Origin: Centroscyllium fabricii
Taxonomy: Eukaryota
DNA: 64,000 nt
Assembly: GCA_051313645.2 (NCBI GenBank)
Contig: JBNRSN020000029.1
Coordinates: forward strand, 20,150,001-20,214,000
Direction of reading: 5' to 3'
Shown: one piece after another, positions 86 to 55,690 of the stretch
Numbering within the stretch: position 1 is the first letter of the stretch
Layout: the number at the start of each line of letters is the position of its first letter
The notes under the pieces: model-generated
The model's input: the letters and a program-made list of their open reading frames with translations, nothing else
Databases searched by the model: none
Told to the model about the DNA's origin: nothing
Translations under genes and position numbers: made by a program

Positions 86-828
86 CAAATTTCACTTGCC
101 CGCAATTTTAAAAGAAATAACTAAAGGTTCACATTTTTATTTTAAATGCTTCAATATAAAGCCAAAAGGCTTAAAAGTGGATAATCTCCAGGCCCTGAAG
201 AGATGTATCGCAGGCTGCTGGGTGAGGCTATGGAAGAGACTGCAGGGGTTCTGACACAAATTTTCAGAACCTCTCTGTCCACAGGGGATGTGCCGGAGGA
301 TTGGAAAATTGCCAATGTAGTGCCATTATTCAATAAAGCTAGTAGGGATAAACCAGGGAATTACAGGCCGGTGAGCCTGACCTCAATGGTGGGGAAATTA
401 CTAGAAAAAATCCTGAGGGACAGAATTAATCTCCACTTGGAGAGGCAAGGTTTAATTAAGGATAGTCAAAATGGCTTCGTCAAGGGAAGATCATGTCTGA
501 CTAATTTGATTGAAATTTTTCAAGGGGTGACCAGGTTTGTGGATCAGGGAAGTGCAGTGGATGTGGAATACATAGATTTTAGTAAGGCTTTTGATAGGTT
601 CCCGCATAGGAGACTCGTCAAGAATGTAAGACGCCATGGGATACAGGGCACCTTGGCACAGTGGATCCAAAACTGGCCTAGTGACAGGAGGCAGAGAGTA
701 ATGGTTGAAGGTTGTTTTTGTGACTGGAAGCCTGTGTCCAGTACTGTAACGGTTGGGTGTATTCGGAATGAAGGCGGGGCCCAAATGCAGAGACACTGAA
801 ACGTCCATAAAACTAAACTCCTTTATTA

Positions 829-1521
829 CTAAAACACTATAGAATACCAAAAACATACAATAATATTGGACACATATTTAACACAAGTCTTATCAACAGA
901 CCGGCACAAACTTCCCAACACAGCGAGCAATGAATAGAGGGGTGCTACGCAATCCAGCGCGCCATTCTCCCAAAGAATACCAGTCCAGGCATAACTGTCC
1001 AACCTAAAGAGAACCGAGCAAGTCCTCCTCAGCGAGCATGACATCTCAATCCACCCTCTACATAGAGGGTTTGGGAACAGCTTATGCTTCCAGATTACCA
1101 ATGTCCAAACCAGGGTTCGGATGAAGAAATGAATGTCCATGTAGTAGAAATGGGTCCGACCTACTTCTTCTGCTTCGTCACAGAGACTTAACCCCATGGC
1201 AATCAGGCAGTAGCGCACCAGGTCTACTGGCAGGGGGACTCCCTTACCAAACAGATGAATGTCCATTGCTGAGTTCCCAATAGCAGGGCGCACTGTCAAG
1301 GCGGAGGGAAATGAGTTCCACCCCAATGCCCCTGTTGGGCAACCCAGCCTGAGCACCTGAAATAGCAGAGTACAAGTACAAGCTGAGTCAGTCGATCTGC
1401 AACCTTCTTGCCTCTGACGGCCACTCAGCACAACAGCAGAAAACCACCTCCTTCCAGTGGCCTGTAGAATGAATAATGGATATCCAGTCCCAAGACGCAT
1501 TACCATCAACTGATCCCCCAT
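829..1521 (-). CDS. 230-aa ORF of unknown function inside the 3' LTR (coding status unproven)
   Basis: Uninterrupted ATG-to-TAG frame in the element's sense orientation, ending just upstream of the LTR AATAAA. No recognisable domain. Confidence 0.25.
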   Translation of the reverse strand: MGDQLMVMRLGTGYPLFILQATGRRWFSAVVLSGRQRQEGCRSTDSACTCTLLFQVLRLGCPTGALGWNSFPSALTVRPAIGNSAMDIHLFGKGVPLPVDLVRYCLIAMGLSLCDEAEEVGRTHFYYMDIHFFIRTLVWTLVIWKHKLFPNPLCRGWIEMSCSLRRTCSVLFRLDSYAWTGILWENGALDCVAPLYSLLAVLGSLCRSVDKTCVKYVSNIIVCFWYSIVF

Positions 1522-1981
1522 CTGCTCTCAGCCAACCTCCTGATTATATCCTAAACCCAACAAGTACCCTATTGGGTGATAGCCAATAATCCTGAGGGGA
1601 TGAGAGCAGAGCACAACTAGCACATACATAGATAATTGAACAGTTAATAACATAACAAGGGAACCTTTTCCTTAAAACAGCTGTGGAGCCACAGTAAAAA
1701 CGGTTTCTAATATTTAAAGGAACAGGACCCCTGTGACAGGACCCCCCCCTTAAGGGCCGACAGTGACGGCCCAAATATCCAATAAACCAAAATAGGGTGG
1801 GCGGAGGGTACAAAGAGGAGACAACAGTCTACAAAAAATTTTTTAAGAGTATTTAAACGCTACAGTGTCTGCTGGGCCGCATTTGACGGGATCATTCTGT
1901 AACGGTTGGGTGTATTCGGAATGAAGGCGGGGCCCAAATGCAGAGACACTGAAACGTCCATAAAACTAAACTCCTTTATTA

Positions 1982-2674
1982 CTAAAACACTATAGAATAC
2001 CAAAAACATACAATAATATTGGACACATATTTAACACAAGTCTTATCAACAGACCGGCACAAACTTCCCAACACAGCGAGCAATGAATAGAGGGGTGCTA
2101 CGCAATCCAGCGCGCCATTCTCCCAAAGAATACCAGTCCAGGCATAACTGTCCAACCTAAAGAGAACCGAGCAAGTCCTCCTCAGCGAGCATGACATCTC
2201 AATCCACCCTCTACATAGAGGGTTTGGGAACAGCTTATGCTTCCAGATTACCAATGTCCAAACCAGGGTTCGGATGAAGAAATGAATGTCCATGTAGTAG
2301 AAATGGGTCCGACCTACTTCTTCTGCTTCGTCACAGAGACTTAACCCCATGGCAATCAGGCAGTAGCGCACCAGGTCTACTGGCAGGGGGACTCCCTTAC
2401 CAAACAGATGAATGTCCATTGCTGAGTTCCCAATAGCAGGGCGCACTGTCAAGGCGGAGGGAAGTGAGTTCCACCCCAATGCCCCTGTTGGGCAACCCAG
2501 CCTGAGCACCTGAAATAGCAGAGTACAAGTACAAGCTGAGTCAGTCGATCTGCAACCTCCTTGCCTCTGACGGCCACTCAGCACAACAGCAGAAAACCAC
2601 CTCCTTCCAGTGGCCTGTAGAATGAATAATGGATATCCAGTCCCAAGACGCTTTACCATCAACTGATCCCCCAT
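1982..2674 (-). CDS. 230-aa ORF inside the 5' LTR, copy of 829-1521
   Basis: Identical except three substitutions (M/K, E/G, F/L). Confidence 0.25.
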   Translation of the reverse strand: MGDQLMVKRLGTGYPLFILQATGRRWFSAVVLSGRQRQGGCRSTDSACTCTLLFQVLRLGCPTGALGWNSLPSALTVRPAIGNSAMDIHLFGKGVPLPVDLVRYCLIAMGLSLCDEAEEVGRTHFYYMDIHFFIRTLVWTLVIWKHKLFPNPLCRGWIEMSCSLRRTCSVLFRLDSYAWTGILWENGALDCVAPLYSLLAVLGSLCRSVDKTCVKYVSNIIVCFWYSIVF

Positions 2675-4009
2675 CTGCTCTCAGCCAACCTCCTGATTAT
2701 ATCCTAAACCCAACAAGTACCCTATTGGGTGATAGCCAATAATCCTGAGGGGATGAGAGCAGAGCACAACTAGCACATACATAGATAATTGAACAGTTAA
2801 TAACATAACAAGGGAACCTATTCCTTAAATCAGCTGTGGAGCCACAGTAAAAACTGTTTCTAATATTTAAAGGAACAGGCCCCCTGTGACAAATACAGTA
2901 CCGCAGGGATCGGTGTTGGGTCCTTTGCTGTTTGTAGTCTATATTAATGATTAAGATATTAATGTAAAAGGCATGATCAGTAAGTTTGCAGATGACACAA
3001 ATGTTGGGGGGTTGGCAAATAATGAGGAGGAAATCGGCAACATGCAGGACGACATAGATGAGTTGGTAAGATGGTCGGAACAGTGGCAAATTGAATTTAA
3101 TCCGGAAAAGTGTGAGCTGATGCATTTCGGTAGGTCTAACATGGCAAGGGAGTACACCATGAATCGTAGGTCGCTAGGGATGACAGAGGATCAGAGGGAC
3201 CTTGCTGTGCAGTTACATATGTCCCTGAAGGCAGCAGGGCAGGTGGAAAATGTGGTTATAAATGCATATGGGATACTTGCCTCCATTAGCCGAGGCATAA
3301 AATGTAAGAGCAGGGATATTATGATTGAGCTGTGCAAGACCACAGCTGGAGTACTGTGTGCAGTTCTGGTCGCCACAATATAGGAAGGATGTGATGGATT
3401 TGGCGAGGGTGCAGAGGAGATTCACCAGGATGCTGCCTGGGCTGGGGAACTTCAGCTATGAAGAGAGACTGAAGAGGCTGGGTTTGTTTTCCTTGGAGCA
3501 GATGAGGCTGAGGGGAAACCTGAATGAGGTGTACAAATTTATGAGGGGAATAGATAAGGTGGATGGAGTGGAACGGTTTCCCTTGTTTCAGGGTTCAATA
3601 ACTAGTGGGCTGTATTTCAGGGTAAGGGGCAGGAGGTATCGTGGGGATTTGAGGAATAACTATTTCACCCAGAGCGTGGATGGAGACTGGAACTCACTGC
3701 CTGAGAGTGTGGTAGAGGCGGCAACCTTCACAACATTCAAAATGAATTTCGATGAGCACTTGAAATGCCACAGCATACAAGGCTACGGACCAAATGCGGG
3801 AAAATGCGACTAGTATAGACAGGGATTGATGTGCGGAACGGAGGCGATGCTCCGAAGGGCCTCTTTCTGTCCTGTATTACTCAATACTCCATGACTGTTT
3901 GACTCTAAAGCCATAGACGGATAGTTCAGTGATGAACATTGCAAAAGTAAGATACATCAACAGCATAAGATAATTAAATTTTCAGACATTGTGAATGTGA
4001 AGCTAAGTG

Positions 4010-4559: not shown

Positions 4560-4975
4560 GGCGTGGGGCCGTCGGGCTCGGAGAGCCGTGGGGCCGTCTG
4601 GCTCGGTGAGCCGTGGGGCCGTCGGGCTCGGAGAGCCGTGGGGCCGTCGGGCTCGGAGAGCCGTGGGGCCGTCGGGCTCGGAGAACCGTGGGGCCGTCGG
4701 GCACGGAGAGCCGTGGGACCATCGGGCTCGGAGTGCCGTGGGGCCGTCGGGCTCGGAGAGCCGTGGGGCCATCGGGCTCGGAGAGCCGTGGGGCCGTCGG
4801 GCTCGGTGAGCTGTGGGGCCGTCGGGCTCGGAGAACTGTGCGGCCATCAGGCTCGGAGAGCTGTGGGGCCGTCGGGCTCGGAGAGCTATGGGGCCATCTG
4901 GCTCTGAGAGCTGTCGGGCCGTCGGGCGCCGAGAGCTGCGAGGCCATCGGGGGCCGGGAGCTGCGAGGCCGTCGT
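4560..4975. repeat. GC-rich 25-bp minisatellite (GTGGGGCCGTCGGGCTCGGAGAGCC)n
   Basis: About 15 tandem units that degrade towards the right. Confidence 0.95.
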
Positions 4976-5177
4976 GGCTGGAGCGCCAGGGCCTGAGTGG
5001 CCGGCACTGGGCGCATCGTGGCTGCAGCGCTGGGTGGTCCTGGTGGGATGGAATGGATCAGACTAGCACTAAAGGACATTTAATAATTTGGGAGATTGCA
5101 TGTTTGCATTTCGTTGTTTTGTGTATGTTCACTTTACAATGACAATAAATTGAATCTTATCTTATCTTATCTTATCT
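4976..5177 (+). mobile_element. LINE 3' end with AATAAA and (TCTTA)n tail (Rex1/RTE-like)
   Basis: caatgacaataaattgaatcttatcttatcttatcttatct. Confidence 0.6.
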
Positions 5178-5787: not shown

Positions 5788-6316
5788 TAGAATCAATGAA
5801 ACATAGAACATAGGAGCAAGAGTGGGCCTTTCAGCACCTGGAGTCTGATCCACCATTCAATGAGGTCATGGCTGATCAAGCAAACTCAGTACCCAGTGCC
5901 TGCCTTCCCCCCAAATCGCTTGATCCATTTAGCCTTCAGAAAGATATCCAATTCTTTCTTGAATATATTTAATGAATTGACCTATATGGCCTACTGTGGT
6001 AGATGATTCCACAGGTTCACCAGTCTCTGGGTGAAGAAGATCCTCAACAGCTCTGTCCTAATTAGCTTACACCTTATCCTTGGACTGCAACACATGATTT
6101 TGGACTACCGTTCATCGGGAACATCCTTTCTGCATCTAGTCTGTCCAGTACTATTAGAATTTTATAGGTTTCAATGAGATCCCCCCTTATTCTTCGAAAC
6201 CCCAACGAGTAGATGCACAATCGACAAAATCTCTCCTCCTGTGTCATTGCTGCCATCCCAGGTATCAACCTGGTGAATGTTCGCTGCACTCCCTCCATTG
6301 CAAGAACATCCTTCCA
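5788..6316 (-). mobile_element. CR1/HER1 LINE 3' fragment
   Basis: MEGVQRTFTRLIPGM...RGDLIETYKIL and a (CATAGAA)-type tail at 5788-5812. Confidence 0.88.
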
Positions 6317-6319
6317 AAA

Positions 6320-9300
6320 TGACCAATTTCACAGAAGTTGGCCTACCAGCATAACGTGACCCATCCTCTCAAACTGACCAATTTCACAAACTGGCCCATA
6401 ACCCACACTGATTAATACCCCCAAACTGACCAATCACCGGAAACTGACACATTAATCTGAACAAGCCAATCATCACCAAACTGACCAAATGACCCCAAAT
6501 AATCTATCACTCCCAAACTGAGCGATCACTCCCAAACTAACCAAACACCCCAAGCTGACCAATCACAAACAATGACCAACCACGCCAATATGAAACATCA
6601 ACGCAAACTGCCCCATCAGAACAGACTGACACATCAACACAAACTGACCCATCAACACAAACTGGCCCATCAACACAAACTGCCCAATTACCGCAAAACT
6701 GAAATCAACTCAAATTGGCCCATCACTCCAAACTGACCAATCCTCTTATAATTGATGTGGCAGCGCAATTTCAACAATCAAAGCAAAATAAAGAATCACT
6801 GCAAACAGATCAATCACACAAAACTGACCCAGCAACATAAATTAACCAATCACCATAAACGGCTCATCAACACAATCGGCCCGAAACTGACCAATCATAC
6901 CCAAACTGAACAATCAACACAAACTGAACAATCACCCCAAACTAACCAATCCTCGCCAAACTGACTAATCAACACAAACTGATCAATCACCCCAAACTGA
7001 CAAATCACCCCCAAACTGACAAATCAAACCAAAGTTACCAATAACCCCAAAATGACCCCTCAAAACGTAATGACTTCTTCTTCTTCTTGTCGTATCTTCT
7101 TTCGAAGTGGTGGATGTAATCACCCCAAACTGAAAAATCATCCCAAACTGCCTAATCACATCAAACTAACCGAACACTCCAAAAAAAGACCAATCACACA
7201 AAAAATGACAAATCATCCTCAATCTGCACCATCAGCACAAACTGAACCATCATACTAAATTGACCAATCCCCCTCAAACTGACCAATCGACCCCAACTGA
7301 CCAATCACACCAAAAAAACACCAAAACATTCTCTTTCACGACAAACTGTCCCATCAACACAAACCACCCCATAAACACTAACTGAACAATCACCCTGAAT
7401 CTGACCAATCTCTAAGGAACTGAACAATCACCACAAACTGAACAAAAAAGAATCTGACCAATCACCTCAAAATGCCCCACCAACACACACTGACCAATCA
7501 TCCAAATTGAACAATTACTCTAAAATGACCAATCACCCCAAGTTGACCAATCAACAAAAACAGACCAATCACCCCCAAAATCACCAATAATACAAATGAC
7601 CAATCACACCAAACTGACCCAACCCCCAAAAATGACCAATACCCAAATTGACCAATCGCCTCAAGCAGCCAAATACATAAACTAACCAAACAACAAATAT
7701 GACCAATGACCCCCCCAATCTGACAAAACACCTCAAACTGACCAATCAGGAAAATTTGACAAATCATCCGAATCTGAACCATCAAGACAAAGTGACCAAT
7801 CACCCACAAATTGCCCCACTAACACAAATCGGCCAATCACCCTTAATGTGAACAATCACTAAGGAACTGGACAGTCACCACAAACTGACCCAGAAAATCA
7901 AACTGACCAAACACCTCAAACTGCTCCATCAACACAAATTGTCCAATCACCCCAAACTGACCAATCGAACTATACTACCAATCACCCAAAGCTGACCAAA
8001 CAACAAAAACTGACCAATCACCTGCAAACTGAACAATCATCCCCAAACTGACCAATCATCCCCAAACTGGCCATTTAACACAAAGTAACCAATCAGCCCA
8101 AACCGATGCATCAATACAAACTTACCAATCACCCCAAACTGTCAAATCACCCACAAACAGACACATCAAAACAAAGTAACCAATCTCCCCAAACTGACAC
8201 TTCATAACGTACTGACCAATCACCCGAAACTGACCAATCACACAAAATCGAACAATCAACAAAAACTGACAAATCATCCCCAAACGGAGCAATCATCCCA
8301 AACTGCCCAATCACCCTAAACAGACCAATCACAACAAATTTACCAAACAGTCCAAACTGACCAATCAACAAAAAAATGACAAATCATCCCCAAACTGCAC
8401 CATCAAAAGAAACTGACCCATCACCTCAAACTGACCATCTCCCTCAAACTGACGAATCAACCCCTACTGACCAATCACACCAAAAATAAGAAATACCAAA
8501 TAATACTCTATCACCGCAAACTGGCAAATCAACACAATCCGCCACAAAAACACAAACTGACCAATCACCTTGAATCAGACCAATCACGGCAATCTGACGC
8601 ATCACTCCAAACTGACAAACCACCAAAGAACTGAACAATCACCACAAACTGACCAAAAAATAAACTGACCAATCAAAACAAACTAACCAAACACCGCAAG
8701 CTGACCAGTCAGCACAAACTGACCAATCACCCCCAAACTGTCCCCTCACACAAATTGATCAATAACCCTAAACTGACCCATCAACTGAAACAGACCCATC
8801 AACAGAAACTTTACATTCAACCACAAGCTGACGGACCAGCCAAACCTGACCAGTCATCCCTAAACTGATCAATCAACACAAACCGACTAATCATACTCCA
8901 AAATGACCAATCACTTACACATTGACCAATAACATCAAACTGACCAATTACTGCCAAACTGACCAATCAGCCCAACTAATCAAGGAACAAAACATGACTA
9001 ATCGCCCCATATAGAAACATAGAAACCAGGAGCAGGAGTAGGCCATTCGGCCCTTCGAGCATGCTCCGCCATTAAATGAGATCATGGCTGATCATCCAAA
9101 CCCAGTATCCCGCCCCTGCCCTCTCCCCAAATTCCTCTCGAGCCTGCATCGACACATATCCCACCCTATCCCCGTAACCCCACATATTCAATCTCCCTAA
9201 CACTAAGGGTCAATTTATCCTGGCCAATCAACCTAACCCGCACATCTTTGGACAGTGGGAGGAAACCGGGGCACCCGGAGGAAACCCACGCAGACACGGG

Positions 9301-12300
9301 GAGAATGTGCAAACTCCACACAGATAGTACCCGAGGCTGGATTTGAACCCGGGTCTCCAGTTCTGTGAGGCAACAATGCTAACCACTGTGCCACCGTTAG
9401 ACACAGCAGCCTACATTGACCCAACAGCACAAACTGACCAATCGCTTCCAAGCTGATCAATCACCCCCAAAATAACCGAACATCCCAAACTCACGAATCA
9501 ACAAAATATGACAAATCATCCGAATCTAAACGATCAACACAAAGTTCCCACTCACGCATAAACTGTCCCACAAACAGAAACCTGCCACTCAGCCTGAATC
9601 TGACCAATCACTAAGGAACTGAACAATCACCACATGCTGACCGAAAATATCAAACTGACCAATCACCTCAAAATGCCCCATCAACACAAATTGTCCAATC
9701 ACCCCAAACTGACTAATCAAACTAAACTAACATTCACCCAATGTTGACCAATCAACACAAACTGTCCAATCCCCTGCAAACTGAACAATCATCTCCAAAC
9801 TGACCAGTCATCCACAAACTGATCAATCAACACAAATTATCACATCAGCCCAAATTGATCCATCAACACAAACAGACCAATCACCCCAAACTGACATATC
9901 ACCCCCAAACAGACTCATTAAATCAAAGTGACCAATTTCCCCAAATTGACCATTCAAAACGTACTGATCAATCACCCCAAACTAAGCAATCACCCCAAAT
10001 TGAACCATCAACACAAACTGACCAATCATCCTCAAACGGACCAATCACCCCAAACTGCCCAATCACCTCAAACTGACAAAGTACACCAAACTAACCAAAC
10101 ACCACAAACTGAACAATCAACAAAAAATGACAAATCATCCACAATCTGCATCATCAAAACAAACTGACCCATCACCTCAAACTGACCATGTCCCTAAAAC
10201 TGACAAATCTTCCCCAACTGACCAATCACACCAAAAAAACACCAACAAATGCTCAATCACCGCAAACTGGGCAATCAACACAGAATTACCCAAAATCTGA
10301 AACTGACCAATCACCCAGAATCTGACCAATCATGCCAAACTTAACCATCACATAAACTGACCAATCAACAAGGAACTGACCAATCACTACAAACTGACCT
10401 AAAACAGACTGACCAATCACAACAAACTGACCAATCACCGCAAACTGAAGAATCACACTAAACTGACCAATCACCCTATGTTGACCAATCAACACAAACA
10501 GACCAATCACCCCCAAACTGAGCAATCATACAAAGTGATCACACACACAATACTGACCAATTAGCCCTAAAATGACCAATCACCCAAATGGACCATACGC
10601 CGCAATGCAACCAAATACATAAGCTGACCAATCACCAATGAATCCCAAGCTGAACCATCAACACAAACTGATCCATCACCACAAATTGACCAATCACCAA
10701 AAAATTAGCAATCACCCCGAACTTTCCCATCACCTTAAAGTGACCAATCGCCCCAAATCTGACCCATTAACATAAACTGACTAATGACCACAAACTGATC
10801 ATTAACACAAACTGACCAATCCCCCACAAGCTGACCACTCAAACCCAAAGTGACACATCAACACAAACAAACCCATCAACAGAAACTGACTAATCAACCC
10901 CAAAATGACCGACCAGCCCAAATCGACCATTCGTCCCCAAATTGACCCATCAACACAAACCCACTAATCATTCCCAAAACTGACCAATCACTCACAAATT
11001 GACCACACACATAAAACTCACCAATCACTGCCAAACTGAGCCATCACCCACAAATGGTCGCATCAACACAAACTGACCAATCACCCTGAATCTGACCAAT
11101 CATGGCAAACTAACCATTCACTCCAATCTGAGCAATCACCAAGGAACAGAGCAATCACCGTAAACTGACCCCCCAAAAAAGAACAATCACGTCAAGCTGC
11201 CCCATCAACACAAACTGAGCCACCACCCCAAAATGAGCAATCACACAACACTTACCAAACACCCCAAGTTGACCAATCAACGTAAACTGACCAATCACCC
11301 GCAAACTGAACAATCACACACAATGAGCAACCACCCAAACTGACCAATCACAACAAAGCAACCAAATGCATATACTGGTCAAGCACCAAAAAATGACCAA
11401 TGACCCCCAAACTGATCATTAGCACAAGCTGACCCATCACCCCACACTGACCAATTACCAAAACATTACCAATAACCCAAAGCTGACGTATCAAAACAAA
11501 GTGAACAATCCCCCACAAACTGACCAATCAAACCCAAACTGACCCATCAATACAAACAAACACATTAACACAAACTGACCAAGAAACTCCAAACTAATCG
11601 ACCAGCCCAAACTGACCAATCAACACAGACCTACTAAACATAAGCCAAACTGACCAATCACTCACAAATTGACCAATCACACCAAACTGCCCAATCACTG
11701 CCAAAATGACCAATCACCCAAACTAAACAATCACCAAAAAGTAATCAATCTCCCCCAATCTGAACCATCAGCACAAACTGACCAAGCATTACAAACTGAA
11801 CAATCACCAAAAAATAGCAATCAGCACAAACTGTGCCATCAAACACACAGACCAATCACATCAAACTGACTCAGAAACAGAAAATTACCCATCACCCAAT
11901 AATGACGAAACACCCCAAACTGACCAGTCACCCACAAACAGACCAATCATGCCAAACTTACCTATCAACACAAACTGACCAATCAACACAGCTGACCTTT
12001 ACTCCCCAAACTGACCCATCAACAAAGACTGAACAATCATCACCAAACTGATGCATCACTCCAAAATAATCCATCAACACAAACTATCAATCACGTCAAA
12101 TTGACCAATCAACATAAACTGACCAATTACCTGCAAACTGACCCATCAACACAAACTGACCAATTATCACCAAACTGATCCACCAGCCCAAACTGACAAA
12201 TCATCACCAAACTGATCACACGACACACACTGACCAATGACCCCTAAACTGACCAATCACCCACAAATTGACCAATTACACCAAACTGACAAATCACTGC

Positions 12301-15300
12301 CAAACGGACCAATCACAACAAACTGATCAATCACCCCCAAACTAACCAAACATCCTAAATTGACCAATCACCTAAAAATTACAAATCACCACAATCTGAA
12401 CCATCAGCATAAAGTGACCAATTAACTCCACAACATCCCATCAATCCAAACTGACCAATCACAAAAAAAATTCCAATCACCCCAAACTGACTCATCAACA
12501 GAAACTTCCCCATAAATAAAAACTGACCAAACACCCCAATCTGACCGTCTATATTAACTGGACCATCGCCCCAATATGACCCATCAAGACACTGACATAA
12601 AAACCCAAAATGACTCATCAACACAACATGAAAAATCACTGCAAATTAACCCATTACCCAAACCGAGCAATCACCCCAAACTGACCAATCACCAAAACTG
12701 ACCCATCAACACAATCTGACCAATCACACAAAATGACACATCACTCCAAAATGACTCAGCATCAGAAACTGAGCAATCACCTTAAACTGACTCATCAACA
12801 CAAAGTGAAAAAAGACAAATTGACACATACACGCAAATTGACCAATCAACACTAATTTCACCCATCAACACAAACTGACCAATCATCCCAAACTGACCCA
12901 TTAATATAAACTGAGCAATCACGCTAAACTGACCAATCACACAAATTAACGCATGAGTACAAACTGTCCAATAACTGCAAACTGACCCATCAACTCAAAC
13001 CGACCAATCACCCCACATTGACCCAACAAACACACACTGACCAATCACCTGCAAAGTGCCCCATCCCCCCAAGGAGACAAATCACCCAAATTGACCCATC
13101 AGCACACACTGACCGATCATCCCAGAACTGCCCAATCGACAGAAACTTCCAATCATCCCCAATCTGACCAAACACCCAGAAATTGAGCAATCACACAAAA
13201 CTGACCAATAACTGCAAAACTCACCAATCACCACAATTTCACCAATCACCCCAAAATAAAAAATAAAAAACTGGCCAATCGCCAAAAAATGACAAATCAC
13301 CACAATCAGAACCATCAACACAAAGTGACCAATCACCCACAAACTTACCAATCAGTCCAAACTGTCCCATCAACACTAACTGAATAATTGCCCCCAACTG
13401 ACACAACTAGAGAAACATACCCGTCACCCGAAACAGACCCATCTACACATACTGAGAAATCGCTCCAAAATGATCCATCAAAACGAAATCATCCATCAGC
13501 ACAAACATTCAATCAATCCCAAACTGACCTATCACCAACAAACACATCAATCACCCCGAAACTGAAGCAGAGCCCCATTCTGCCCCATGAATTAAAGCTG
13601 AACAATCAACCCAAAATGACCCAATCTCTCCAAATTGAGCCATGGACCCAAACTGACCCCCAACACAAACTGACCAATCATCCTCAAACCGACAGTAAAA
13701 ATAAACAGAGCAATCAGCCCAAACTGAGACAGCAACACAAACTGAACAATCAGCCACAAACTGGCCATTCAAACAATTTGACTCATCACTGCAAGCTGGC
13801 AAATCACCGCACACGGACCAGTCATCCCCAAAATCACCAATCAACAAAAACTGATTCATTAAAGTAAACTGACCAGTCACCCCAAACTGATACATCAACG
13901 CAAACTGACCAATAAACACAAACCGACCCAACAACATAAACTGACCAATCACCCACAAGCTGACCAATCACACCAAAATGAACATTCAGTCAAACTCACC
14001 AATCAACACAAACTGACCAGTCACCCCAAACAAACCCATCAGCGAAAACAACAATCGCCCCAAACTGATTCATCAACGCAAACTGAACAATCTCCCAAAC
14101 TGACCAATCACTCCTAAACTGACCAATCACCCAAACAGACCAATCATCGTAAACTGACTAATCATGCCCAACCCGACACATGAAAACAAACAGACCATGC
14201 AAAACCAGCTCACCAATTACCCAAGATGAGCAATCAACAGAAACTGACCATTCACCCCAAAACAGACCCATCAGCCCAAACTGACCAATCGGCGCAAAAT
14301 GATTCATCAACGCAAACTGACCAATCACCCCTAAACTGACACATCAACCAAACTGACCAATCACTCCATAACGGAACAATCACTCAAAAGGACCAATCAC
14401 CGTAAACTGATCAATCATTCCCAAAACGAACCATCAACACAAACTGAACAAGCAAAACCACCTGACCAATTACACAAACTGAGCAATCAACACAAACTGA
14501 CCAATCACGGAAAACTGACCAATAATCCTAAGCTGACCAATCACCTCCAAAATGAAGCATCAACCCAAACAGACCCATCAAGCCCAAAATCACCCATCAC
14601 CTCCCAAACACACCAGTCATCCCAAACTGATCCAGAACACCAAACTGACTCATCGAATAAAGCAGAACAATCACCTGCAAACTGACCAATCACCGCAAAC
14701 TGAGCCGTGAACACAAACTGACACTCAGCACTAACTGACCAATCACCCTCAAACCGGAACATAAGCATAAAAAGAGCAACCAGCCCAATCTGACCCATCA
14801 AGACAAACTGACCAATCTATCCAATCTGATCCATCAATACAAAACTAACCAATCATGCCAAATTGACCAATCATCCCAAACTCAACACTCACCCAAACGA
14901 ACAGATCAAAACAAACTGACCAACAACCCCAAAGTCACCATTCACCACAAACTAACGCATTCATTCTAAACTGACCAATCTGCAAAAAAAATCCCAATTA
15001 CTGCAAACTGCCCCATTAAAACAAATTGGAAAACCACGCCACACTGTCCAATCGTCACCAAACTTACCAATCATACAAAACTGTCCAATCAACCAAACTG
15101 ATTCATCAGCGCAAACTGACCAATCACCTATAAACTGACCCATCACCCAAACTGACCAATCACTCCTTAACTGACCAATCACCCAAACTAAGCAATCACC
15201 GCAGAATTACAAATCACCACAATCTGAACCATCAGCGCTAAGAGACCAATCACCTCCACAATTTCCCATCACCGCAAACTGACCAATCAAGAAAAAAGAA

Positions 15301-16493
15301 CCAATCACCACAAATTGGCCCATCAACACAAATTTCCCCATAAATAGAAACTGGCCAATCACCCCAAACAGAACCATTAACTTAAATTGAGCAATCACCC
15401 TAAACTGACCAATCACATAAATTAATGCATACATACAAACTGACTAATCACTGCAAACTGACACATCAACACAAACCGACCAATCACCCCAAATTCACCC
15501 ATCAACACACACTGACCAATCGCATGCAAACTTCCCCATCACCCCAAGCTGACCAATCACCCAAACTGACCCATCAATACACACTGACCTATCATCCCAC
15601 AACTGACCAACCGACGCAAACTGATCAATCACCCCCAATCTGGCCAATCACCCAAAAATTGAGCAATCGCACCAAACTGACCAATCAATGCAAAGCTGCC
15701 AAATCACCTCAAATTTACCAATCACCCCCAAAATAATCAAAACCCGCAAACTGGCCAATCATCAAAAAATGACAAATCACCACAATCTGAACCATCAACA
15801 CAAATTCAGTAATCACCCACACATTTACCAATCACTCCAAACAGGCCCATCAGCACTAACTGACCAATTGCCCCCAATCTGACACGTCACCCCAAACTGA
15901 TCCGTCACCCGAAATTGACCCATGCACACAAAATTACATATTGCTCCAAAATGATCCATCAAAACAAACTGAACAAACAACCTAAACTGACTCATCAACA
16001 CATACTAACCCATCAACACAAACTGACCATTCAAACCCAAACTGACCCAGAATCACAAACTGAAAAATCATCCCCGAACTGACCATCCGACAAAAACTGA
16101 CAAATCACACAAAGCTGACCAATCACCAAAAAAATAACAAATCACTGCAGTCTGAACCATCTTCACAAAGTGACCAATCACCCCCCAAATTTCCCACCAC
16201 ATAAACTGAGCAATTCCCAAAAATTACCAATCACCCCAAACTGACCTATCACAAAAAACTTCCCAATAAATATAAACTGAACAATCACCCCAATCATACC
16301 CATCAACACTAACTGACCAATCGACCCCAATATGACACATCAAAACAAACTCACACCTCACCCGAAACTGACACATCAACACAAACTGAACAATCACTGC
16401 AAACTGACCAATCAACCCACAGAGACCACACACCCTAAACTTACCAATCACACACATTAACGTATGAGTACAAACTGACCAATAACCGCAAAC
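6320..16493. repeat. About 10-kb degenerate satellite, monomer about 17-19 bp AAACTGACC(A/C)ATCA(CCCC/ACAC), with higher-order blocks
   Basis: Hundreds of aaactgaccaatca variants with extreme A/C strand skew. Larger duplicated blocks, e.g. about 7750-8450 vs 9500-10200 and about 12380-12530 vs 15205-15360. Confidence 0.95.
9011..9397 (-). mobile_element. HE1-type V-SINE inserted in the satellite
   Basis: tRNA-like head (acggtggcacagtggttagc...ggttcaaatcc), V-domain (tgtggagtttgcacattctccccgtgtctgcgtgggtttcctccgg) and CR1-derived 3' end with TTTCTATG tail. Confidence 0.9.
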
Positions 16494-16778
16494 TTGGATG
16501 CTTGGAGATTGTCTTAAGACAATCAATAAACTATGCATCACGTGCGAATATGCCTTGTTTAATATATAAGAATCAATGACCGGAGCAGCTACCTTGAGAA
16601 GCTAGTGACTGCACGCAGGTGCATAACTCTTCTCCCAGAGCGCTCTGAAATAAATTATACTCTTGCATTTAAATCAGACAATTGGAGTTTGAGTTTTATC
16701 ACTCTGTTTGATTAAGTCGGGTACTCGTCGACCCTCCTTCATGGTTGGTCCGCTAAGGTACCGATTAATCCCCCAACA
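16494..16778 (+). mobile_element. 5' LTR remnant of a retrovirus-like element
   Basis: TATATAAG at about 16563, AATAAA at about 16649, ends ..CAACA immediately before a PBS. Confidence 0.75.
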
Positions 16779-47300: not shown

Positions 47301-48152
47301 CGAATTGTTGGTTCCTAACCTGAAGTGTCAGAGTACAGAGAGAATGTGCCCTCTGCTGTGCGAATATTGCACATCTCAAACATTGGGCCAGAATTTCGGC
47401 TGCCTCGCACCAGATGCCCGCGGACGAAATGCACATGGATCCGAGATGCCCACGGATCCGAGATGCCCACGGATCCGAGATTTCCTATGCTGAGGGAGAA
47501 GGGCCCTCAGCATCAAACGCAGGCATATAGTTGCACCCAAGATTTCCGGTTGAAAAGGGTCAATTTTTTCCGTGATTCTGTGGGCAACGTTGCCTTCAGA
47601 TGCCCTCCAAAAAAGCTCCAGTAACTCGTGCATGAAGGAGAGCTGCTGCTTGTGGAGAACGGTGAAAGGACTGTTTCAGCGTGAAAAGTTAAGTTCTAGC
47701 AAATTTATTTCAGTTTTGATGTTTGAATGATGTTTAGTAAAAGTTGTGAGTGATTTTGAACGTTTTAGAAAAAAATTCAAACTCGCGTTTTGAAGTGTTT
47801 TTTTGCCGGGTTTTTTCAACCAAATTGTTTGGTTGAAAAGTCATTCATCCTAATTAAAAAATTAAGGACCTGCTAACCCCCCCACTGCTAAAAGTATTTT
47901 TGGGGGGATTTCAGTGTCAGATAACTGAGAAATGCCTTTTTCATTTTAGAAAAGCAAGTACACTTACCTAACTATGGCACTGAAAAAGTGCTTGCAGTTC
48001 TCTGCAGCACTTTCTGCACTTTCATCAGGGGGCATGTGCATATAGATTAGCCCTCAGAGGGCGGGGCTTGCTATTTCTCCACGCAACAGGCAAGCTGAAA
48101 CGTTGCCCACCAAAAGTGGCTGGGCAGAAACAATGCCCATGAAGAAGGTAAT

Positions 48153-50645
48153 GGGCCAGAAATTCCGCTTGACCCGTTTCGTGGGCATCGTTTCCGTTAT
48201 GTTGCCCACGGGAGACGTCCAGTTTTTGCACTTGAAAATTGCGATACTGATTACCTCCTTCGTGGGCATCGTTTCTGCTCAGCCAGTTTTGGTGGGCAAC
48301 GTTTCTGCATGCTTGCTGCAGCAAGCCCCGCCCTCTGAGGGCTAATTTAAATGCACACGCCCCCTGATCAAAGTACAGAAAGTGCTGCAGAGAACTGCAA
48401 CCATTTTATTCAGCAGCAGAGTTTGGTAAATGTGCTTGCTTTTCAGCTGATTCAAACAATTTGTTTGAAAAAAACCGGCACCATTTTGGTTATGTAGCCC
48501 AGTCAATCCGTTCCGTGAATTGAGGGGGCCCTGAGTTCTTTAACTCCATCTTTCGTTCGTGAATCTTGGATCCTCTATAACAACAATTCCAGTAAATTTG
48601 AATACAATGAGCAAACACTCTTCAGTCTCATACTTTCAAGACTAAACATTAACCTCTACAACAATTAACACTCAGAAACTATTTTAATAATTAAAACAGT
48701 AACTTGTAAATTTATTTGCAAGGTAAAATATTCAACAGTCAAAGTAAACCTTAGCACATTTCTAACTTTCTGTCTTTAACCAAGAATTTAGAGTTACAGC
48801 ATTCAGTTACCTTAATCTCTTTTCAGTCAATGAGTTAAAATAATTTAGATTTTACATTACATCAATGAACTCACACACCTTGTGCCCATTGATATCAACT
48901 ATACTCTAAGCCGGCAGATTGAATTTACAAAATGGAAAAGCGTAGCAGGCCTGTTAAGTTCCTTGCAGACTTTGTAAATAAAACATAAAGTTTCTTCACT
49001 CTCATTAGAGCAATAACCAATCAATAGATCTTGGACCAGGAACAAACAATCAGCAGCTTGGCCTTTCACAAAGTGTTGAGTAAATCCAGCGTAGCCAGAG
49101 GAGTTCTGGAGCTGTCTCCAGGTCACTCAGAATGCTATCTGGTTATAATGGTTCATTCCGCTCAGGAATATTCTGAACCAAGCTACTGCCCCAAGCTCCA
49201 CGAGTATTTTACAGCCTCAGTCAGCCCACATCACTGCTTAAACTCTGCTAACTAGTCGAACATCTTCTCACGAGTTATCGGTATTAAACTTTGGTTCAAA
49301 GCCCTCTATAATCTCGTTAAAGCATATTCCCAAGACCAGTTATGGCTCAAAGGAGTCCACTGCTCTCCAACTCCTTCCCCCTTCTCTCTCAATGGTATAC
49401 TGCCTCTCCGGGCTTCTGCCGCTCTGGGGTTCGCTCTGTGCCACTCAGAGGTAGCCCAGTGGCTCCAGGAAGACTGCTGAGCATTACACAGCCCTCTATC
49501 CGACGACTGCTACTCACGGCTTAGGAAGACTGCTGAGCATTACACAGCCCTCTATCCGAGGACTGCTACTCACAGCTTACAGCTCTGCTCCCTTACCCAG
49601 ACTCCAACTCCTCCTTTCTTCAGACTATGCTCCAAAAAGCTCCTTTTTTCCAGCCAACACTCTAAAAAGCTCCTTCTCTCCTTCAGCCCATGCTCCAAAA
49701 AGCTCCTTCTCCTCTTCAGCCCACGCTCCAAAAAGCTCCTTCTCTCCTTCAGCCCACACTCCAAAAAGCTCCTTCTTCCCCTCTCTCCAGCTTAAACTGC
49801 TAGTTTTAACTACTCTCCTGGGGTCATGTGACCACACTTTGCAACTCCTGTTTTAACTATCAACAGCTGTTGCTCTGGGCTGTTTATGTCTGTGTCTCCC
49901 AGGTCCTAAAGTCCACCCCCTTAACAGCCGAATTATTCACAGGGCTACAGTTAAAAAAACGGGGAAAAAACACTTAAAAACGCGATTTTTTATTTTTTTT
50001 CTAAAACATAACACTCACTCACAACTTTTACTAAACACCACTCAAACATCAAAACTGAAATTATTTTGCTGGAACTTAACTTTTAGCAAAGCAAGCCTTA
50101 ACAGAAACATTTCAGCACTCCACCAACTAAAATGTAAAACGCATTTCTCAGTTAACTGAGACTGAAATCCAAAAAAAAATACTTTCAGCAGTGGGGGATT
50201 AGAAGGTACTTAATTTGGTTGAAAAAAACAGCACCATTTTGGTTAAAAAAAAACGGTGAAAAAACACTTATAAACGTGATTTTCAAATTTTTTTCTAAAA
50301 CATTCACACTCACAACTTTTACTAAACACCACTCAAACATCAAAACTGAAATTAATTTGCTAGAACTTACCTTTTCACGCTGAAAAAGTCCTTTCACCGT
50401 TCCACACAAGCAGTTGCTCCAGCTTTTTTCAAGTGCATCTGAAGGTAACGTTGCCCACAGAATCACGGAAAAAAATGACCCTTTTTCAATCGGAATTTTT
50501 GGGTGCAACTCATTCCTGGTTATTATGCTGAGGGCCCTTCTCCCTCAGTATCGGAAATTTCGGATCCGTGGACATCTCGGATCCGTGGGCATTTTTCGTG
50601 GGCATCGCCGTGGGCATCTGCTTTAGGCATCGGAATTTCTGGCCC
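48153..50645. mobile_element. Second copy of the same family inserted in opposite orientation
   Basis: TIRs GGGCCAGAAATTCC / GGAATTTCTGGCCC, TSD aat/aat. Host sequence resumes colinearly. Confidence 0.8.
48493..49949. mobile_element. 1457-bp solo LTR with internal tandem repeats
   Basis: TGTAGCCC...GGGCTACA ends and perfect 4-bp TSD gtta/gtta. An approximately 57-bp duplication (49466-49580) and approximately 33-bp ctccaaaaagctccttc repeats (49625-49780). Confidence 0.82.
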
Positions 50646-52819
50646 AATCAGTATTGGAAATTTCAAGCGCAAAAACGGGACGTCTCCCGTGGGCAACGTA
50701 ACGGAAACGATACCCACGAAACGGATCGAGTCGAATTTCTGGCCAATTAACTTCGAGATACAGCAGGAAATAGCACGGGTGAAGGGGCATGGCAATAAAT
50801 GGTGGGTTGCAGAGTTTTGTAAGTGATCCTTGCACTGAGCACTGGGGCTGTGATCACGGACTGGGATGTGTGTTACTGTGCAGAGTGAAGAGGTTCTAAC
50901 ATGAGCAGCTGGTCGCTCGCATCAGCTGTCCAATCTGGAAAACATCACACCTGGCCATTCCACCGGGAGAGGCCCTGCCGCTCTTTGTGAATCCGGGAAC
51001 CTGGTTACAAAATAGAGCAGATGCGTTCACCGTCAGGAAACCGGAATAACGGGATCCCGGAGTCGCACTGCACAGTTTGCACTCATGCAAGGGCTAGTAA
51101 TAGTTAAAAAAATATTTAAAACATACAACAATTTGTTATAAATGAGTAAAATTGTTTGCAGATGGGCTAAAGCATACAGTGGTCTCTGAGTTACGCCTTA
51201 CGGTTTTAATATGAGAAGGAAAGCTCATCATAAGTACTTGCATAACTTGGCTCAAGACCAGCTGAAGATCTACATAACCTGGCCACAGATCATGTGCTAC
51301 ATCACAACCTGGGGGCACTAAGATATTTTCAGGGCCTCGGCATGTCGGTGCTAAACATGGGTAGGTGTATTTCTTTCATTACAGGTTATTATTGGGCAGG
51401 CTTTTGAATTGGTTTTGTTGTTAATATAATTCTACACCCTGCACCAATTATAGATATTGACTGAGAGTCATGCCATATTTTTCTGCCATATAAAAAATGA
51501 TTATTTGTCTTATAAAGCCCAGGTTTATGCCTGCCGTCACTTACGAGTTAAAAAAACTCAGTTAAATTTATAGGAGTAGAGATTCTGCTTGTTTTATCAA
51601 TGCAATCCGAGTGAAATTAGCTGAACCAGTGCCAAAGCTCGTGATAATTCAAGCGTGTGTTACGTCAAGCGTAAACCAAATTTACGCGATCTTTAACGAT
51701 AGTTTCAAAGTCATTTTCCCAGAATTCGGCCCTGTGCACAAAGCTGGCTATGCCGCCAATGGAATTAATAACCATGGCGAGTTTGCGCCGATTCTGTCAG
51801 TTCCAGGAGGGTCTTGAAATTGAGCTTTTCTCAACTGCATAGGCACCAGTCGGCATGGAAAAAGGTTTCTACAGGTAAAACAGAAATGACTTAGAAACTG
51901 ACTAATGTACACCAATAAATCCACTGAATGGTTCCGTTTGTTTAAAAAACATAATTTTCTGTGCGCTAAAATGAAGTGGTTGGAGTGACTCAAACAGATT
52001 AAATTCAGATCCTAGCTCCAATATTAATGAGTATTTCCCCTTGATTCCTTTGGTTGAGGGGAATAAAACTCTTCGTCTTTTGGATCTCACCACACAAGTG
52101 GGCCAAATTATTACCAATCTCACTCTGGAGGGCTACCATTCCCAGTTGCTGGACTACTTTCCTTTGAAACAGCTAAACATTCCTGAAGTGGGTTGTTTCC
52201 CAAGTGGAATGCTTGTCCGAGAGGTGCCTGGAATTCGGAGTGGACCCTGGAGCCATCCCAAATTCTGTCACAGGGTCATGGAAGTTGCTAGACAAATTCG
52301 AGTTTTTTTCCTTCTTATACAAATCAGCTTTATTGGACATTGCCTCGAACCTATTCTCTAATGTAATATCAATTTCAGAGGGAATTGCTGGAATACCTTC
52401 AGGATTGTCACCGGTACGTTTTATATATTTTTTCCAACCATTCCCCATCCATGTCCCCATAATCCAAACATTAATTTGACATTGAAGTACCAACCACCAG
52501 CTGATCTTTCGTGGTTCACAGCCGCCATGAGGAAACGCCCATTTCATTTCTAGGGGGCTGCTTATGCAAGGCATCAGCTATCCCCCTTTGAATTTACTCC
52601 AACTAAAGGAAATACCCAGAGGAGTACGATTATGGACATTAAATAATGAAGAGTTTAGTCGCCGAAGATGGGGATGGTGAAAGTAAAAAACAACTATTCT
52701 TTTTACAAAAGAATTATGAATATTGGACATCCTGGAGAGATGTATGTTAGACAGCTTGAGAAGTTAAGGGTTAAAGTCGAACTTTTTTCATCTTAGAACA
52801 ACAGTTATTTCAAGATAAA

Positions 52820-55690
52820 GAGTCATAGAGTTTCACAGCACAGAAAGAGGCCCTTCGGCCCATCGCGTACATGCCGGCAATCGAGCCATGTCTACTCTAG
52901 TCCCATTATCCTGCATTTGGTCCGTAGCCTTGTATGCTATAACACTGCAAGTGCTTATCCAAATGCTTCTTGAATGTTATGAGGTTTACTACCTCCATCA
53001 CCTTATCAGGCAGTTAGTTCCAGATGCAAACCACCCTCTGGGTGAAACGGAGCTTCCTCAAATCCCCTCTGCACATCCCGCCCCTTACCTTTTAGCTATG
53101 TCCCCTTGTGATTGACCCCTCTACCAAGGGAAAAATAGACTTTTTTTCACTCTATCTATGCCCCTCATAATTTTCAACACCTCAAGCATGTCCACACTCA
53201 GCCTTCTCTGCTCTAAGGAAAGGGAACGCAGTCTGTCCAGTGACTCTTCATAGCTGAATCGCTCCAGCTCAAGTAACATACTGGTGAATCTCCTCTGCGC
53301 CCTCTCCAAGGCAATCACATCCTTCCTATATTGTGGCGACAGAACTGCACACAAGACTCCAGCTGTGGCCTTACCCGCGTTTTGTACAGCTCCATCATAA
53401 CCTTATATTCTCTGCCTCGGCTAATGAAGACAAGTATCTCATATGTCTTTTTAAATACCTTATCTACCTGTCCTGCTGTCTTCAGGGATCTATTTACATG
53501 CACACAAAGGTCCCTCTGATCCTCTGTCTTTTCTAGGGTCTTACAATTCATTGTGTATTCCCTTGCATTGTTTGTCCTTCCAAAATACATCACCTCACAC
53601 ATTTCAGGGTTAAATTCCATTTGCCACTGCTCCGCCCATCAGACCAACTCATCCATGTCGTCCTTCAAGTTGCGGAATTCCTCCTCGATATTTACCAACA
53701 CCCAACCTTTGTGTCATCTGCAAACTTACTGATCATGCCTTTTACATTACAATCTCAGTCATTAATATAGACTACACACAGCAAGCGACCCAACACCGAT
53801 CCCTGCGGTACCCCACTGGACATAGGCTTCCAGTCACAAAAACAAAGTTCGACCATCACACTCTGCCTCCTGTCACTAAGTCAGTTTTGGATCCACGGTG
53901 CCAAAGTGCCCTGGATCTCTTGGGCTCTTACCTACTTGACCAGTTCCCTATGTGGGAACTTATCAAAAACCTTACTTAAATCCTTGTATACCACATCCAC
54001 TGCACTACCCTCAGCCACACACCTGGTCACACCTTCAAAAAATTCAATCAAATTAATCAGACATGATCTTCCCTTGACGAGGCCATGCTGACAATCCTTA
54101 ATTAACCCTTGCCTCTCCAAGTGGAGACCAATTCTGTCCCTCAGGATTTTTTCTGGTAATCTCCCCACCATTGATCTCAGGCTCACCGGCCTGTAATTCC
54201 CTGGTTGAACCCTACTAACGTTCTTGAATAATGGCACTACATTGGCCATTTTCCTATCCTCCGGTACATCACCTGTGGCCAGTGAGGTTCTGAAAATTAG
54301 TTTCAGATCCCCTGCATTCTCTTCCTTAGCTTCACCCAGCAGCCTGGGATACATCTCGTCAGGGCCTGCAGACTTATCCACTTTTAAGCCTGATAAAACC
54401 TCTAAAACCTCCTCCCTGTCAATACTAATATGATCAAGTGTATCGCATTCCTCCTATCGTATCTCTATGTCCACATCGCCCTTCTCCACAGTGAACACAG
54501 ATGCAAAAAATGCATTCAAAACACGACACACATCATCTGGCTCTACACATATTTTCCCACTTTTGTCCCTAATAGGCCCCACTCTTTCCCTCGTTATCCA
54601 CTTGCCCTTAATATACTTATAAAAGAACTTACGTTTTTCTTCTGTTTTGCCCGCCAGTGTTATCTCATGGCCCCTCCTCGCTCTCCTAATTTCTTTTTAA
54701 TGTAGCTCCTTGCACCTTCTCTACTCCTCTAGCGCCTCCTCTGTCTTTAGTTATTTATGTCTGCAGAAAGTCCCCCTTTTTTCCGAATCAATTCACATAT
54801 ACCCCTTGACATCCATGTTTCCCTGGGATTATTGGTTCCACCCTTGATCTTTAGGGGAACAAGTTTCCCTTGTACTTTCTCAATTTATTTTCTGAACGCT
54901 TCGCACTGTTCTGATGCAGACTATCCTTCGAGTAGCTGGTCCCAGTCCACTTGGGCCTGCTCCTGCCTTATCATTTTAAAATCGGCCTTGCCCGAATTTA
55001 GAACATTTATTTCTGGTCCATCTTTGTCCTTGTCCATTACTACCTTAAATATTAGCGAATTATGGTCACTGTCCCCAAAGTGCACTGCTACTGATACTTC
55101 TTCCACTTGCCCGTCCTCATTTCCCAGAATTAAGTCTAATGCCACCACCTCTCTTGTAGGACTTCCTACATACCGGCTCAGAAAGCTCTCCTGGATGCAG
55201 TTTAAGAATCCTGCACACTCTACGCCCTTCACACTTTGGCTATCACAGTCAATATTGGCGAAGTTGAAATCCCCTACTATTACTACCCTATTATTTCCAC
55301 ACTTCTCCGAGATTTGCCTGCAAATCTGTTCCTCTATTTCCCTCTGACTGTTTGGGGTTCTGTAGTATACTTCCAGTAATGTGCTTGCGCCCTTCTTATT
55401 TTTAAGTTCCACCCAAATAGCCTCACTAGAGGACCCTGCCAAATCCCTTCTGACAACTGCATTTGACTCCTTTATTAATATTGCGACACCCCGTCCTCCT
55501 TCCCACCTCCATTTCTTGCCTGAAGATTCTATACCCCGGAAAATGGAGCTTCCATTCCCGCCCCTCCCAGACGCATGTCTCTGTAAATTCAAAAATTTCA
55601 TTTTCCCATTTGTTGAACAACACCTTCAATTTATCCCCCTTATATGCCTGACTACTTGCATTAAAATGCATGCCATTTAAACTTGCCCTA
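52820..55690 (-). mobile_element. CR1 LINE with most of ORF2 (AP endonuclease and RT), decayed
   Basis: GRGVAILIKE, YYRTPNS, IVGDFNF, LDLILGN, GDSDHN (endonuclease). PGNYRPVSL and RT motifs. Same subfamily as 160-3907. Confidence 0.93.

Follow-up and report, generated by a model that had tools for sequence, protein, structure and literature searches.

How does a retroelement that codes for neither gag nor pol come to be mobilised, and is there a function for a long open reading frame (ORF) that lies inside its long terminal repeats (LTRs)? These questions are raised by an element at positions 745-2891 of a 64,000-nucleotide stretch of DNA from Centroscyllium fabricii (GenBank assembly GCA_051313645.2, contig JBNRSN020000029.1, positions 20,150,001 to 20,214,000 of the forward strand), which we call the window and to which coordinates refer unless an LTR position is given. 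An earlier note on this DNA had proposed that each LTR may be a self-contained promoter-ORF-polyadenylation (poly(A)) cassette of a young non-autonomous family. Our analyses make it very probable that the element belongs to a family of several thousand copies with LTRs of about 1 kb and a core of about 160 bp, whose reverse transcription is likely self-primed, whose mobilisation likely depends on a chromodomain Gypsy retrotransposon of the Tf1/Sushi type acting in trans, and which carries an ORF that is probably accidental.

Architecture of the element and its family

The features that define the window copy and its insertion site, including its primer-binding site (PBS), polypurine tract (PPT), target site duplication (TSD) and the long interspersed nuclear element (LINE) that it entered, are:

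745-2891, minus strand: whole element, 2,147 bp, two LTRs and a short core
1898-2891, minus strand: 5' LTR, 994 bp; U3 about 219 nt and R-U5 about 775 nt, with the boundary placed from the predicted self-primer
745-1738, minus strand: 3' LTR, 994 bp, direct repeat of the 5' LTR
1739-1897, minus strand: internal part, 159 bp; PBS and leader, then the PPT end
1742-1751, minus strand: PPT, 3 nt ahead of the 3' LTR
2696-2701, minus strand: TATA-like box (second copy at 1543-1548), in both LTRs
1975-1980, minus strand: AATAAA (second copy at 822-827), LTR position 912, directly after the ORF stop
740-744, plus strand: left TSD copy, AGTAC, in flank sequence
2892-2896, plus strand: right TSD copy, AATAC, one mismatch to the left copy
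203-3813, plus strand: reverse transcriptase (RT) region of the host LINE, split by the insertion, with Pfam RVT_1 on either side

Most of the layout described in the earlier note was borne out. The two LTRs, said to differ at under about 1% of sites, differ at seven of 994 (0.7%), and on the minus strand their termini read TGTCACA...TGTTACA. The 159-bp spacer and the PPT were both located, and the absence of gag and pol was confirmed, as the core is only 159 bp long and searches with the LTR ORF gave neither a Pfam match nor a homologue. Each LTR does consist of a TATA-like box (TATAA at LTR position 191, window 1544-1548, 27 nt upstream of the ORF's ATG), about 690 nt and a poly(A) signal. 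The 5-bp TSD is also present, although its two copies differ at one position. Across subfamilies the TATA-like box is constant in position and variable in sequence, and some subfamilies have ATTAAA or GATAAA in place of AATAAA. The PPT has the same form as those of chromodomain Gypsy elements in this genome.

The element was inserted within the RT frame of the host LINE, which we take to be of the CR1 type. Its empty site is displayed by another LINE copy in the window, at 52825-55625 on the minus strand, which is of the same type as the host LINE, 75-88% alike, and has an endonuclease-like frame. Assembled contigs from two public sequencing runs cover the element deeply. A third run, labelled as another organism, yielded one contig at depth 2, which we do not count as evidence on host range.

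The genome that carries the window is 7.2 Gb in size. It contains 3,891 exact junctions of LTR end and PBS and a further 1,014 with a PBS variant (at least 4,905 junctions, both PBS types together), and an exact 25-nt motif from U5 occurs 16,122 times. To sample copies in order of position, we took the first 30 junctions with the main PBS and the first 20 with the variant PBS on contig C1. The internal part measured 152-172 bp in all 30 of the former and 160-174 bp in all 20 of the latter, and the short spacer, for which the earlier note had allowed a one-off deletion, is thus present at 50 of 50 sampled junctions. Sampled LTRs were mostly 900-1,230 bp long, and the 25 that remained of the first 30 after five tandem duplicates were dropped showed pairwise identities of 47-98%. 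Full-length LTR pairs inside single elements were 96-100% identical, most of them with a TSD of their own, and core and LTR diverge in step across subfamilies.

A perfect TSD of 5-6 bp was found at 46 of 60 loci picked by similarity; the remainder comprised three views of the window copy, eight loci truncated by the locus edge and three without a TSD. Solo LTRs accounted for 21 of the 30 best matches to the ORF DNA (20 of the 21 with a perfect TSD), and arrays of three and four LTRs in tandem were also present, a single TSD enclosing each array. These data indicate that the family is a non-autonomous lineage of long standing, many subfamilies of which have been active recently, and not a one-off deletion. 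This is because the shared short core, individual TSDs and high LTR-pair identity recur across divergent subfamilies. The independent TSDs and solo LTRs, together with the candidate partner described below, uphold the proposal of a young non-autonomous family.

Probable self-priming and a candidate partner

Four features of the window copy bear on the way in which its reverse transcription would begin:

2662-2672, minus strand: 11-nt segment predicted to be the self-primer and the 5' end of the RNA (second copy at 1509-1519), from complementarity to the PBS
1886-1896, minus strand: PBS, complementary to the LTR 11-mer and without a TGG start
1933-1951, minus strand: U5 arm of a predicted U5-leader stem, from pairing across 17 sequences
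1863-1876, minus strand: leader arm of the same predicted stem, from pairing across 17 sequences

The PBS pairs with an 11-mer located about 30 nt downstream of the TATA-like box, a relationship that went unnoticed in the earlier note. Ten or more of the 11 possible Watson-Crick pairs were present in 27 of 30 5' LTRs, and the three 5' LTRs without the pairing were truncated or altered. The 11-mer was retained across subfamilies while the bases flanking it varied freely. Moreover, a sub-lineage with a changed third base in the 11-mer predicted a compensatory PBS, and this PBS was found 1,014 times; elements that carried it had the matching primer in the 3' LTR (20/20) and in the 5' LTR (19/20). 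From this co-variation it is likely that the family starts its own reverse transcription from the 11-nt LTR segment that matches the PBS. The window copy itself is probably a dead-end daughter, because in each of its LTRs two inner positions of the 11-mer fail to match the PBS.

The predicted stem between U5 and leader has 14 pairs, which were 98% paired in 17 sequences (four of them from the candidate partner), with only one two-sided change. Rfam returned no match to a tRNA-derived or other structured RNA at E<=1 in 11 loci and ARAGORN no tRNA gene in eight loci; neither a ribozyme nor a tRNA-derived part was found in these scans.

An element without coding capacity would need enzymes from elsewhere. 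We therefore searched with a pattern that combined the LTR end, the PBS start and the start of a Sushi-type gag. This pattern matched 649 genomic sites, and a frame starting M(D/E)PA opened in 30 of 30 partner loci examined. LTR pairs of 497-596 bp, 96.6-99.8% identical, were present in five of eight fetched regions, and none was found within 7.5 kb in the other three. One copy has a frame of 1,528 codons with capsid, zinc knuckle, protease, RT, RNase H, integrase, SH3_Tf2-1 and chromo domains, the zinc knuckle and protease scoring below the Pfam cut-off. The candidate partner thus has the Gypsy domain order with a chromodomain integrase, whereas the mini-elements, as we call members of the window family, code for neither gag nor pol.

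Similarity between the two families is found at several places. The partner has its own primer-PBS pair, which differs from that of the mini-elements at two paired positions, on both sides, and includes one G-U pair in four of five LTRs. Identity is about 79% across about 60 nt of U5 and 64% across 152 nt of R (E 3e-6), and the PPT end of the most diverged (basal) mini-elements is nearly identical to that of the partner. The leader of the 159-bp core resembles the partner's gag start and its PPT end the partner's pol end, and the mini core looks like the first ~35 plus the last ~45 nt of a partner-like internal region. Judged from these sequence likenesses, the chromodomain Gypsy family with shared ends is the likely helper, which gives a candidate for the autonomous partner that the earlier note had suggested looking for. 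A version of the search pattern that kept the mini-elements' exact PBS gave no matches, and the 30 best SH3_Tf2-1 loci had no BLAST match to the element, only a PPT of like shape.

Three further observations were made on Gypsy elements of this genome. A second abundant family (loci L062-L090) has an SH3_Tf2-1 integrase and a similar PPT, and the starts of its LTRs are unrelated. At locus L137, an LTR of the mini-element family is located in the gag region of a candidate partner copy. Locus L155 holds a shortened partner-type element with 544-bp LTRs that are 98.9% alike, an internal part of about 2 kb and a 5-bp TSD.

We propose the following replication cycle, modelled in part on Tf1, the first 11 bases of which complement the PBS and are released by an RNase H cut, as described in PMC7175516. 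RNA polymerase II would begin with the first G of the 11-mer, about 30 nt past the TATA-like box, and this start would set the lengths of U3 (~219 nt) and R-U5 (~775 nt). The RNA would then run R-U5-core-U3-R over about 1.9 kb. Its 11-mer, which is complementary to the PBS and co-varies with it, may be freed as a primer by the RNase H of the partner, as in Tf1. Gag, RT and integrase of the partner would package, copy and insert the element with a 5-bp TSD; the TSDs and shared ends are seen in the genome, and the partnership is what we infer from them.

The enlarged R region and the open reading frame

Three features of the window copy lie within R:

1982-2674, minus strand: ORF of 230 codons within R of the 5' LTR, restricted to one clade and by all indications evolving neutrally
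829-1521, minus strand: its copy in R of the 3' LTR
2420-2503, minus strand: conserved RNA hairpin of about 80 nt inside the ORF (second copy at 1267-1350), predicted from folding and covariation

R-U5 measures 750-995 nt in the mini-elements versus 340-440 nt in the partner. Four of nine subfamily representatives contain internal direct repeats with a period of 148-162 nt and up to 96% identity, so that R has been enlarged by duplication of internal blocks of 150-160 nt. The best-conserved stretch of the ORF region (LTR ~390-500) folds as an 80-nt hairpin, for which the folding z-score is -4.4 in the window copy; four other copies score between -2.2 and -4.5. Across 15 copies, 98% of cells were paired, and two-sided changes occurred in 5 of 25 pairs versus 0-1 in slid controls. 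The conservation at LTR ~390-500 is therefore better explained at the level of RNA than of protein, and R is likely RNA-constrained; a role of the hairpin in packaging is our guess.

As the earlier note had stated, each LTR has a 693-nt sense ORF with TATAA upstream and a stop ahead of AATAAA, and the two copies differ at three sites, all of them residue-changing. The ORF is rare by chance, as an ATG-initiated ORF of at least 230 codons appeared in none of 3,000 dinucleotide shuffles. Nevertheless, several results speak against a function of its product. The predicted protein belongs to no Pfam family, and no homologue was found by a word-seeded search (lengths 126-403 aa) or by full phmmer among 1.84 billion representatives. 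The structure prediction that the earlier note had suggested, a single-sequence AlphaFold model, gave no confident fold (pLDDT 38). In 53 young insertions, 42 synonymous, 108 missense and 3 nonsense variants were counted (expected: 41.6, 105.0 and 6.5). A codon model fitted to the 34 distinct open copies among 60 insertions, broken copies being left out, estimated omega at 1.06 and rejected values of 0.7 or less, whereas the control, 12 copies of the partner's gag, gave 0.61 (2 delta lnL 12.4 against 1). When eight copies less than 88% identical served for comparison, dN/dS ranged from 0.74 to 1.05; of the 162 indels in these same comparisons, which are non-independent, 37 were multiples of three.

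Retention of the frame is similarly limited. At least 220 open codons were kept in three of the 25 position-ordered LTRs and in none of the 18 diverged ones. Three alleles were counted genome-wide at codon ~106: that of the window (3,659 LTRs), a 23-bp frameshifting deletion (461) and one that is 1 nt shorter (4,703), and in 20 of 20 copies the last had no ORF of more than 129 aa. Frameshifts at LTR 533, 656, 781 and 817 have been propagated by transposition. The ORF's first ATG was found in only 4 of the 25 position-ordered LTRs, and its G is the first G of the 11-mer, so that it straddles the predicted RNA start. Part of the ORF also aligns with the R region of the partner LTR.

How such a frame could have arisen is suggested by its relatives. 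Outgroups have the alternative state at several 1-nt indels (LTR ~295, ~478 and ~538), and the joined frame is therefore likely derived and recent. Stop triplets, counted in all frames, are scarce on the sense strand of 11 of 14 mini-element and 3 of 5 partner LTRs, a bias through which long frames form more easily. A few recent 1-nt indels would thus likely have merged shorter open stretches of a stop-poor strand into the 230-codon frame; the indel states are those observed, and their polarity would follow from the outgroups. In the sister LTRs L104 and L110, a single stop separates two open stretches that share one frame through a +1/-1 indel pair, the first stretch being of 109 or 99 codons and the other of 132. 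Avoidance of splice or poly(A) signals was considered for the depletion of stop triplets but gained no support, as CAG and TAA are not depleted in the mini-elements. Overall, our data suggest that the 230-codon ORF is probably an accidental, clade-restricted by-product without sign of selection on protein, and the selected promoter-ORF-poly(A) cassette of the earlier note is not supported, given an omega near 1, the spread of frameshifts and a first ATG that overlaps the predicted RNA start.

Several points weigh against parts of the account given so far. The RNA 5' end is a predicted position, and since the partner LTR shows similarity in local stretches only, a different family might be the true helper. 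The hairpin reaches z-scores of only -1.4 and -0.5 in two of seven copies, its covariation stems from few independent events (the pairs measure was reached in 41 of 500 shuffles), and for R-U5 of the window copy taken in full, folding does not surpass that of shuffled sequences (z -0.15). The stop-free length of the ORF was attained in only 2 of 2,000 trinucleotide shuffles, so that it remains rare by this measure also. Subfamily L105, 58% identical to the window LTR, has a stop-free sense frame of 205 codons (3' LTR nt 212-838), which lacks an early ATG and was matched in 1 of 400 trinucleotide shuffles. Within the window clade, an ATG-initiated ORF of at least 200 aa was kept in 15 of 20 position-ordered copies (11 of 20 in a second sample), and most copies of the clade have a second ATG, 14 nt into the predicted RNA. 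Finally, nonsense variants are slightly below expectation, at 3 versus 6.5 in the 53 young insertions and at 2 versus 5.1 (P=0.12), with 0 versus 2.6 (P=0.07) in the core.

The last few of these points could be accounted for if the ORF of the window clade were translated from the second ATG, notably from solo LTRs, and its openness, but not its amino acids, were selected, for example through RNA stabilisation. Solo LTRs would be the favoured source as their RNA has no PBS to pair with. Such selection would fit the extreme length of the ORF, its position directly ahead of AATAAA, the shared direction of the small nonsense deficits and the retained frames, including those in which a +1 insertion near the start shifts use to another ATG and the frame stays long. 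However, the nonsense deficits are not significant and a similar one is present in another reading frame; the retained frames often differ at their N- and C-termini via propagated frameshifts; the commoner allele is the one without the ORF; and the clade is young (>=90% identity), so that its openness is largely inherited. We thus consider this explanation unlikely. We are just as doubtful of its fullest form, a de novo gene of 200-240 codons, born in R of one clade, spread as about 3,700 promoter-ORF-poly(A) cassettes, many of them solo LTRs, translated from the +14 ATG and selected for translatability.

Retroviruses offer a precedent for a functional and conserved LTR product, as sag of mouse mammary tumour virus (MMTV) and nef of human immunodeficiency virus (HIV) are ORFs that overlap the LTR, in U3, and code for conserved proteins. 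The frame between TATA-like box and AATAAA in both LTRs of the window copy is likewise a long ORF within the LTR, but it lies in the predicted R, is confined to a single clade and is partly alignable to the partner's R. With omega well above that of the gag control, the frame missing in 18 of 18 diverged copies, no homologue, no confident fold and a first ATG that is seldom present, a sequence-conserved accessory protein is very improbable and largely refuted. That the short core reflects repeated deletion or recombination of longer elements, and was not itself replicated, would suit the frequent recombination indicated by tandem LTR-core-LTR arrays and solo LTRs, but is refuted by the uniform core, its co-divergence with the LTR, the near-identical LTR pairs with their own TSDs and the different LTRs of the candidate coding partner, unless the same LTR also belongs to numerous long elements with PBS variants outside our search.

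Neighbouring features, known relatives and significance

The remainder of the window contains the following:

6300-16500 (and 1-60): long degenerate 18-bp satellite with strong C/G strand skew and higher-order periods of 55, 91 and 109 bp
4562-4987: GC-rich 25-bp tandem array, 17 copies, 87% matched
32276-32890, minus strand: open frame, presumably like an immunoglobulin C1 or major histocompatibility complex class I alpha-3-like exon
60842-61765, plus strand: intronless frame of ~300 aa, which we take to resemble a class A G-protein-coupled receptor
35403-37495 and 47446-50754: long inverted repeats (702 bp at 93%; nested shorter arms), possibly remnants of DNA transposons or foldback elements

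[quoted passage not shown] Like tandem-array TRIMs, bivalve biv-TRIM and fish Helenus, it has two LTRs around a short core that contains a PBS and a PPT, it lacks gag and pol, and it occurs with TSDs, as solo LTRs and in arrays, the last two being usual for TRIMs (PMC10886601 and PMC6934838). TRIMs are there defined as shorter than 1 kb (PMC10886601), and against this limit, or a relaxed one of 1.5 kb, the present element is long, at 2,147 bp with LTRs of about 1 kb. Apart from length, it has each of the strict TRIM attributes, namely the LTR/PBS/PPT layout, the lack of gag and pol, and TSDs at many insertions. The vertebrate Helenus TRIMs are primed by tRNA (tRNA-His, -Leu, -Lys; PMC10886601), unlike our element, the PBS of which is complementary to its own LTR. 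Unlike the TRIMp3 group (Cassandra, Helenus, Ajax), it has no tRNA- or 5S-derived LTR sequence in the loci scanned with Rfam (11) and ARAGORN (8). In its workings the element resembles a TRIM, but the term suits it only in the broad sense of PMC13570524. That source places long-TRIMs and intermediate-size non-autonomous LTR families of sugar beet along one continuum of size, 65 of 115 families having short internals, and these share with our family long LTRs, short internals, tandem copies and solo LTRs; they differ in belonging to a plant, whereas ours is a family of an animal genome with self-priming and a partner of chromodomain Gypsy type.

Self-priming has been described for yeast and vertebrate members of the Tf1/Sushi group (PMC6317226 and PMC4600332). 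As in Tf1/Tf2, Tj1 and vertebrate Tf1/Sushi chromoviruses, the PBS is complementary to 11 nt of the LTR, and chromo and Tf2-type SH3 domains occur in the candidate partner; a U5-leader stem next to the PBS may be a further likeness. Unlike them, the element codes nothing for transposition and its R-U5 far exceeds that of the partner. Our verdict is a long-LTR, self-priming, TRIM-like family with Tf1/Sushi cis-signals. No description of a self-priming element with kilobase LTRs in sharks or fish was found in the literature, in a search that lay outside Repbase, Dfam and supplements, so that a library entry is possible, and none was found on de novo ORFs internal to LTRs.

The family constitutes a natural experiment on self-priming in an animal genome, in which primer and PBS have changed together over thousands of copies while the LTR drifted to about 50% identity. 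The family is also an example of a non-autonomous element with its cis-signals in a much enlarged R instead of the core. Its LTRs, each about 1 kb long and with TATA-like box and poly(A) signal, number at least 16,000 and represent a sizeable source of promoters and of candidate short transcripts. The ORF calls for caution, as a frame of 230 codons between TATA and AATAAA can emerge and spread without sign of selection. If it were translated, however, it would offer an instance of de novo gene birth that is dated and present in many copies.

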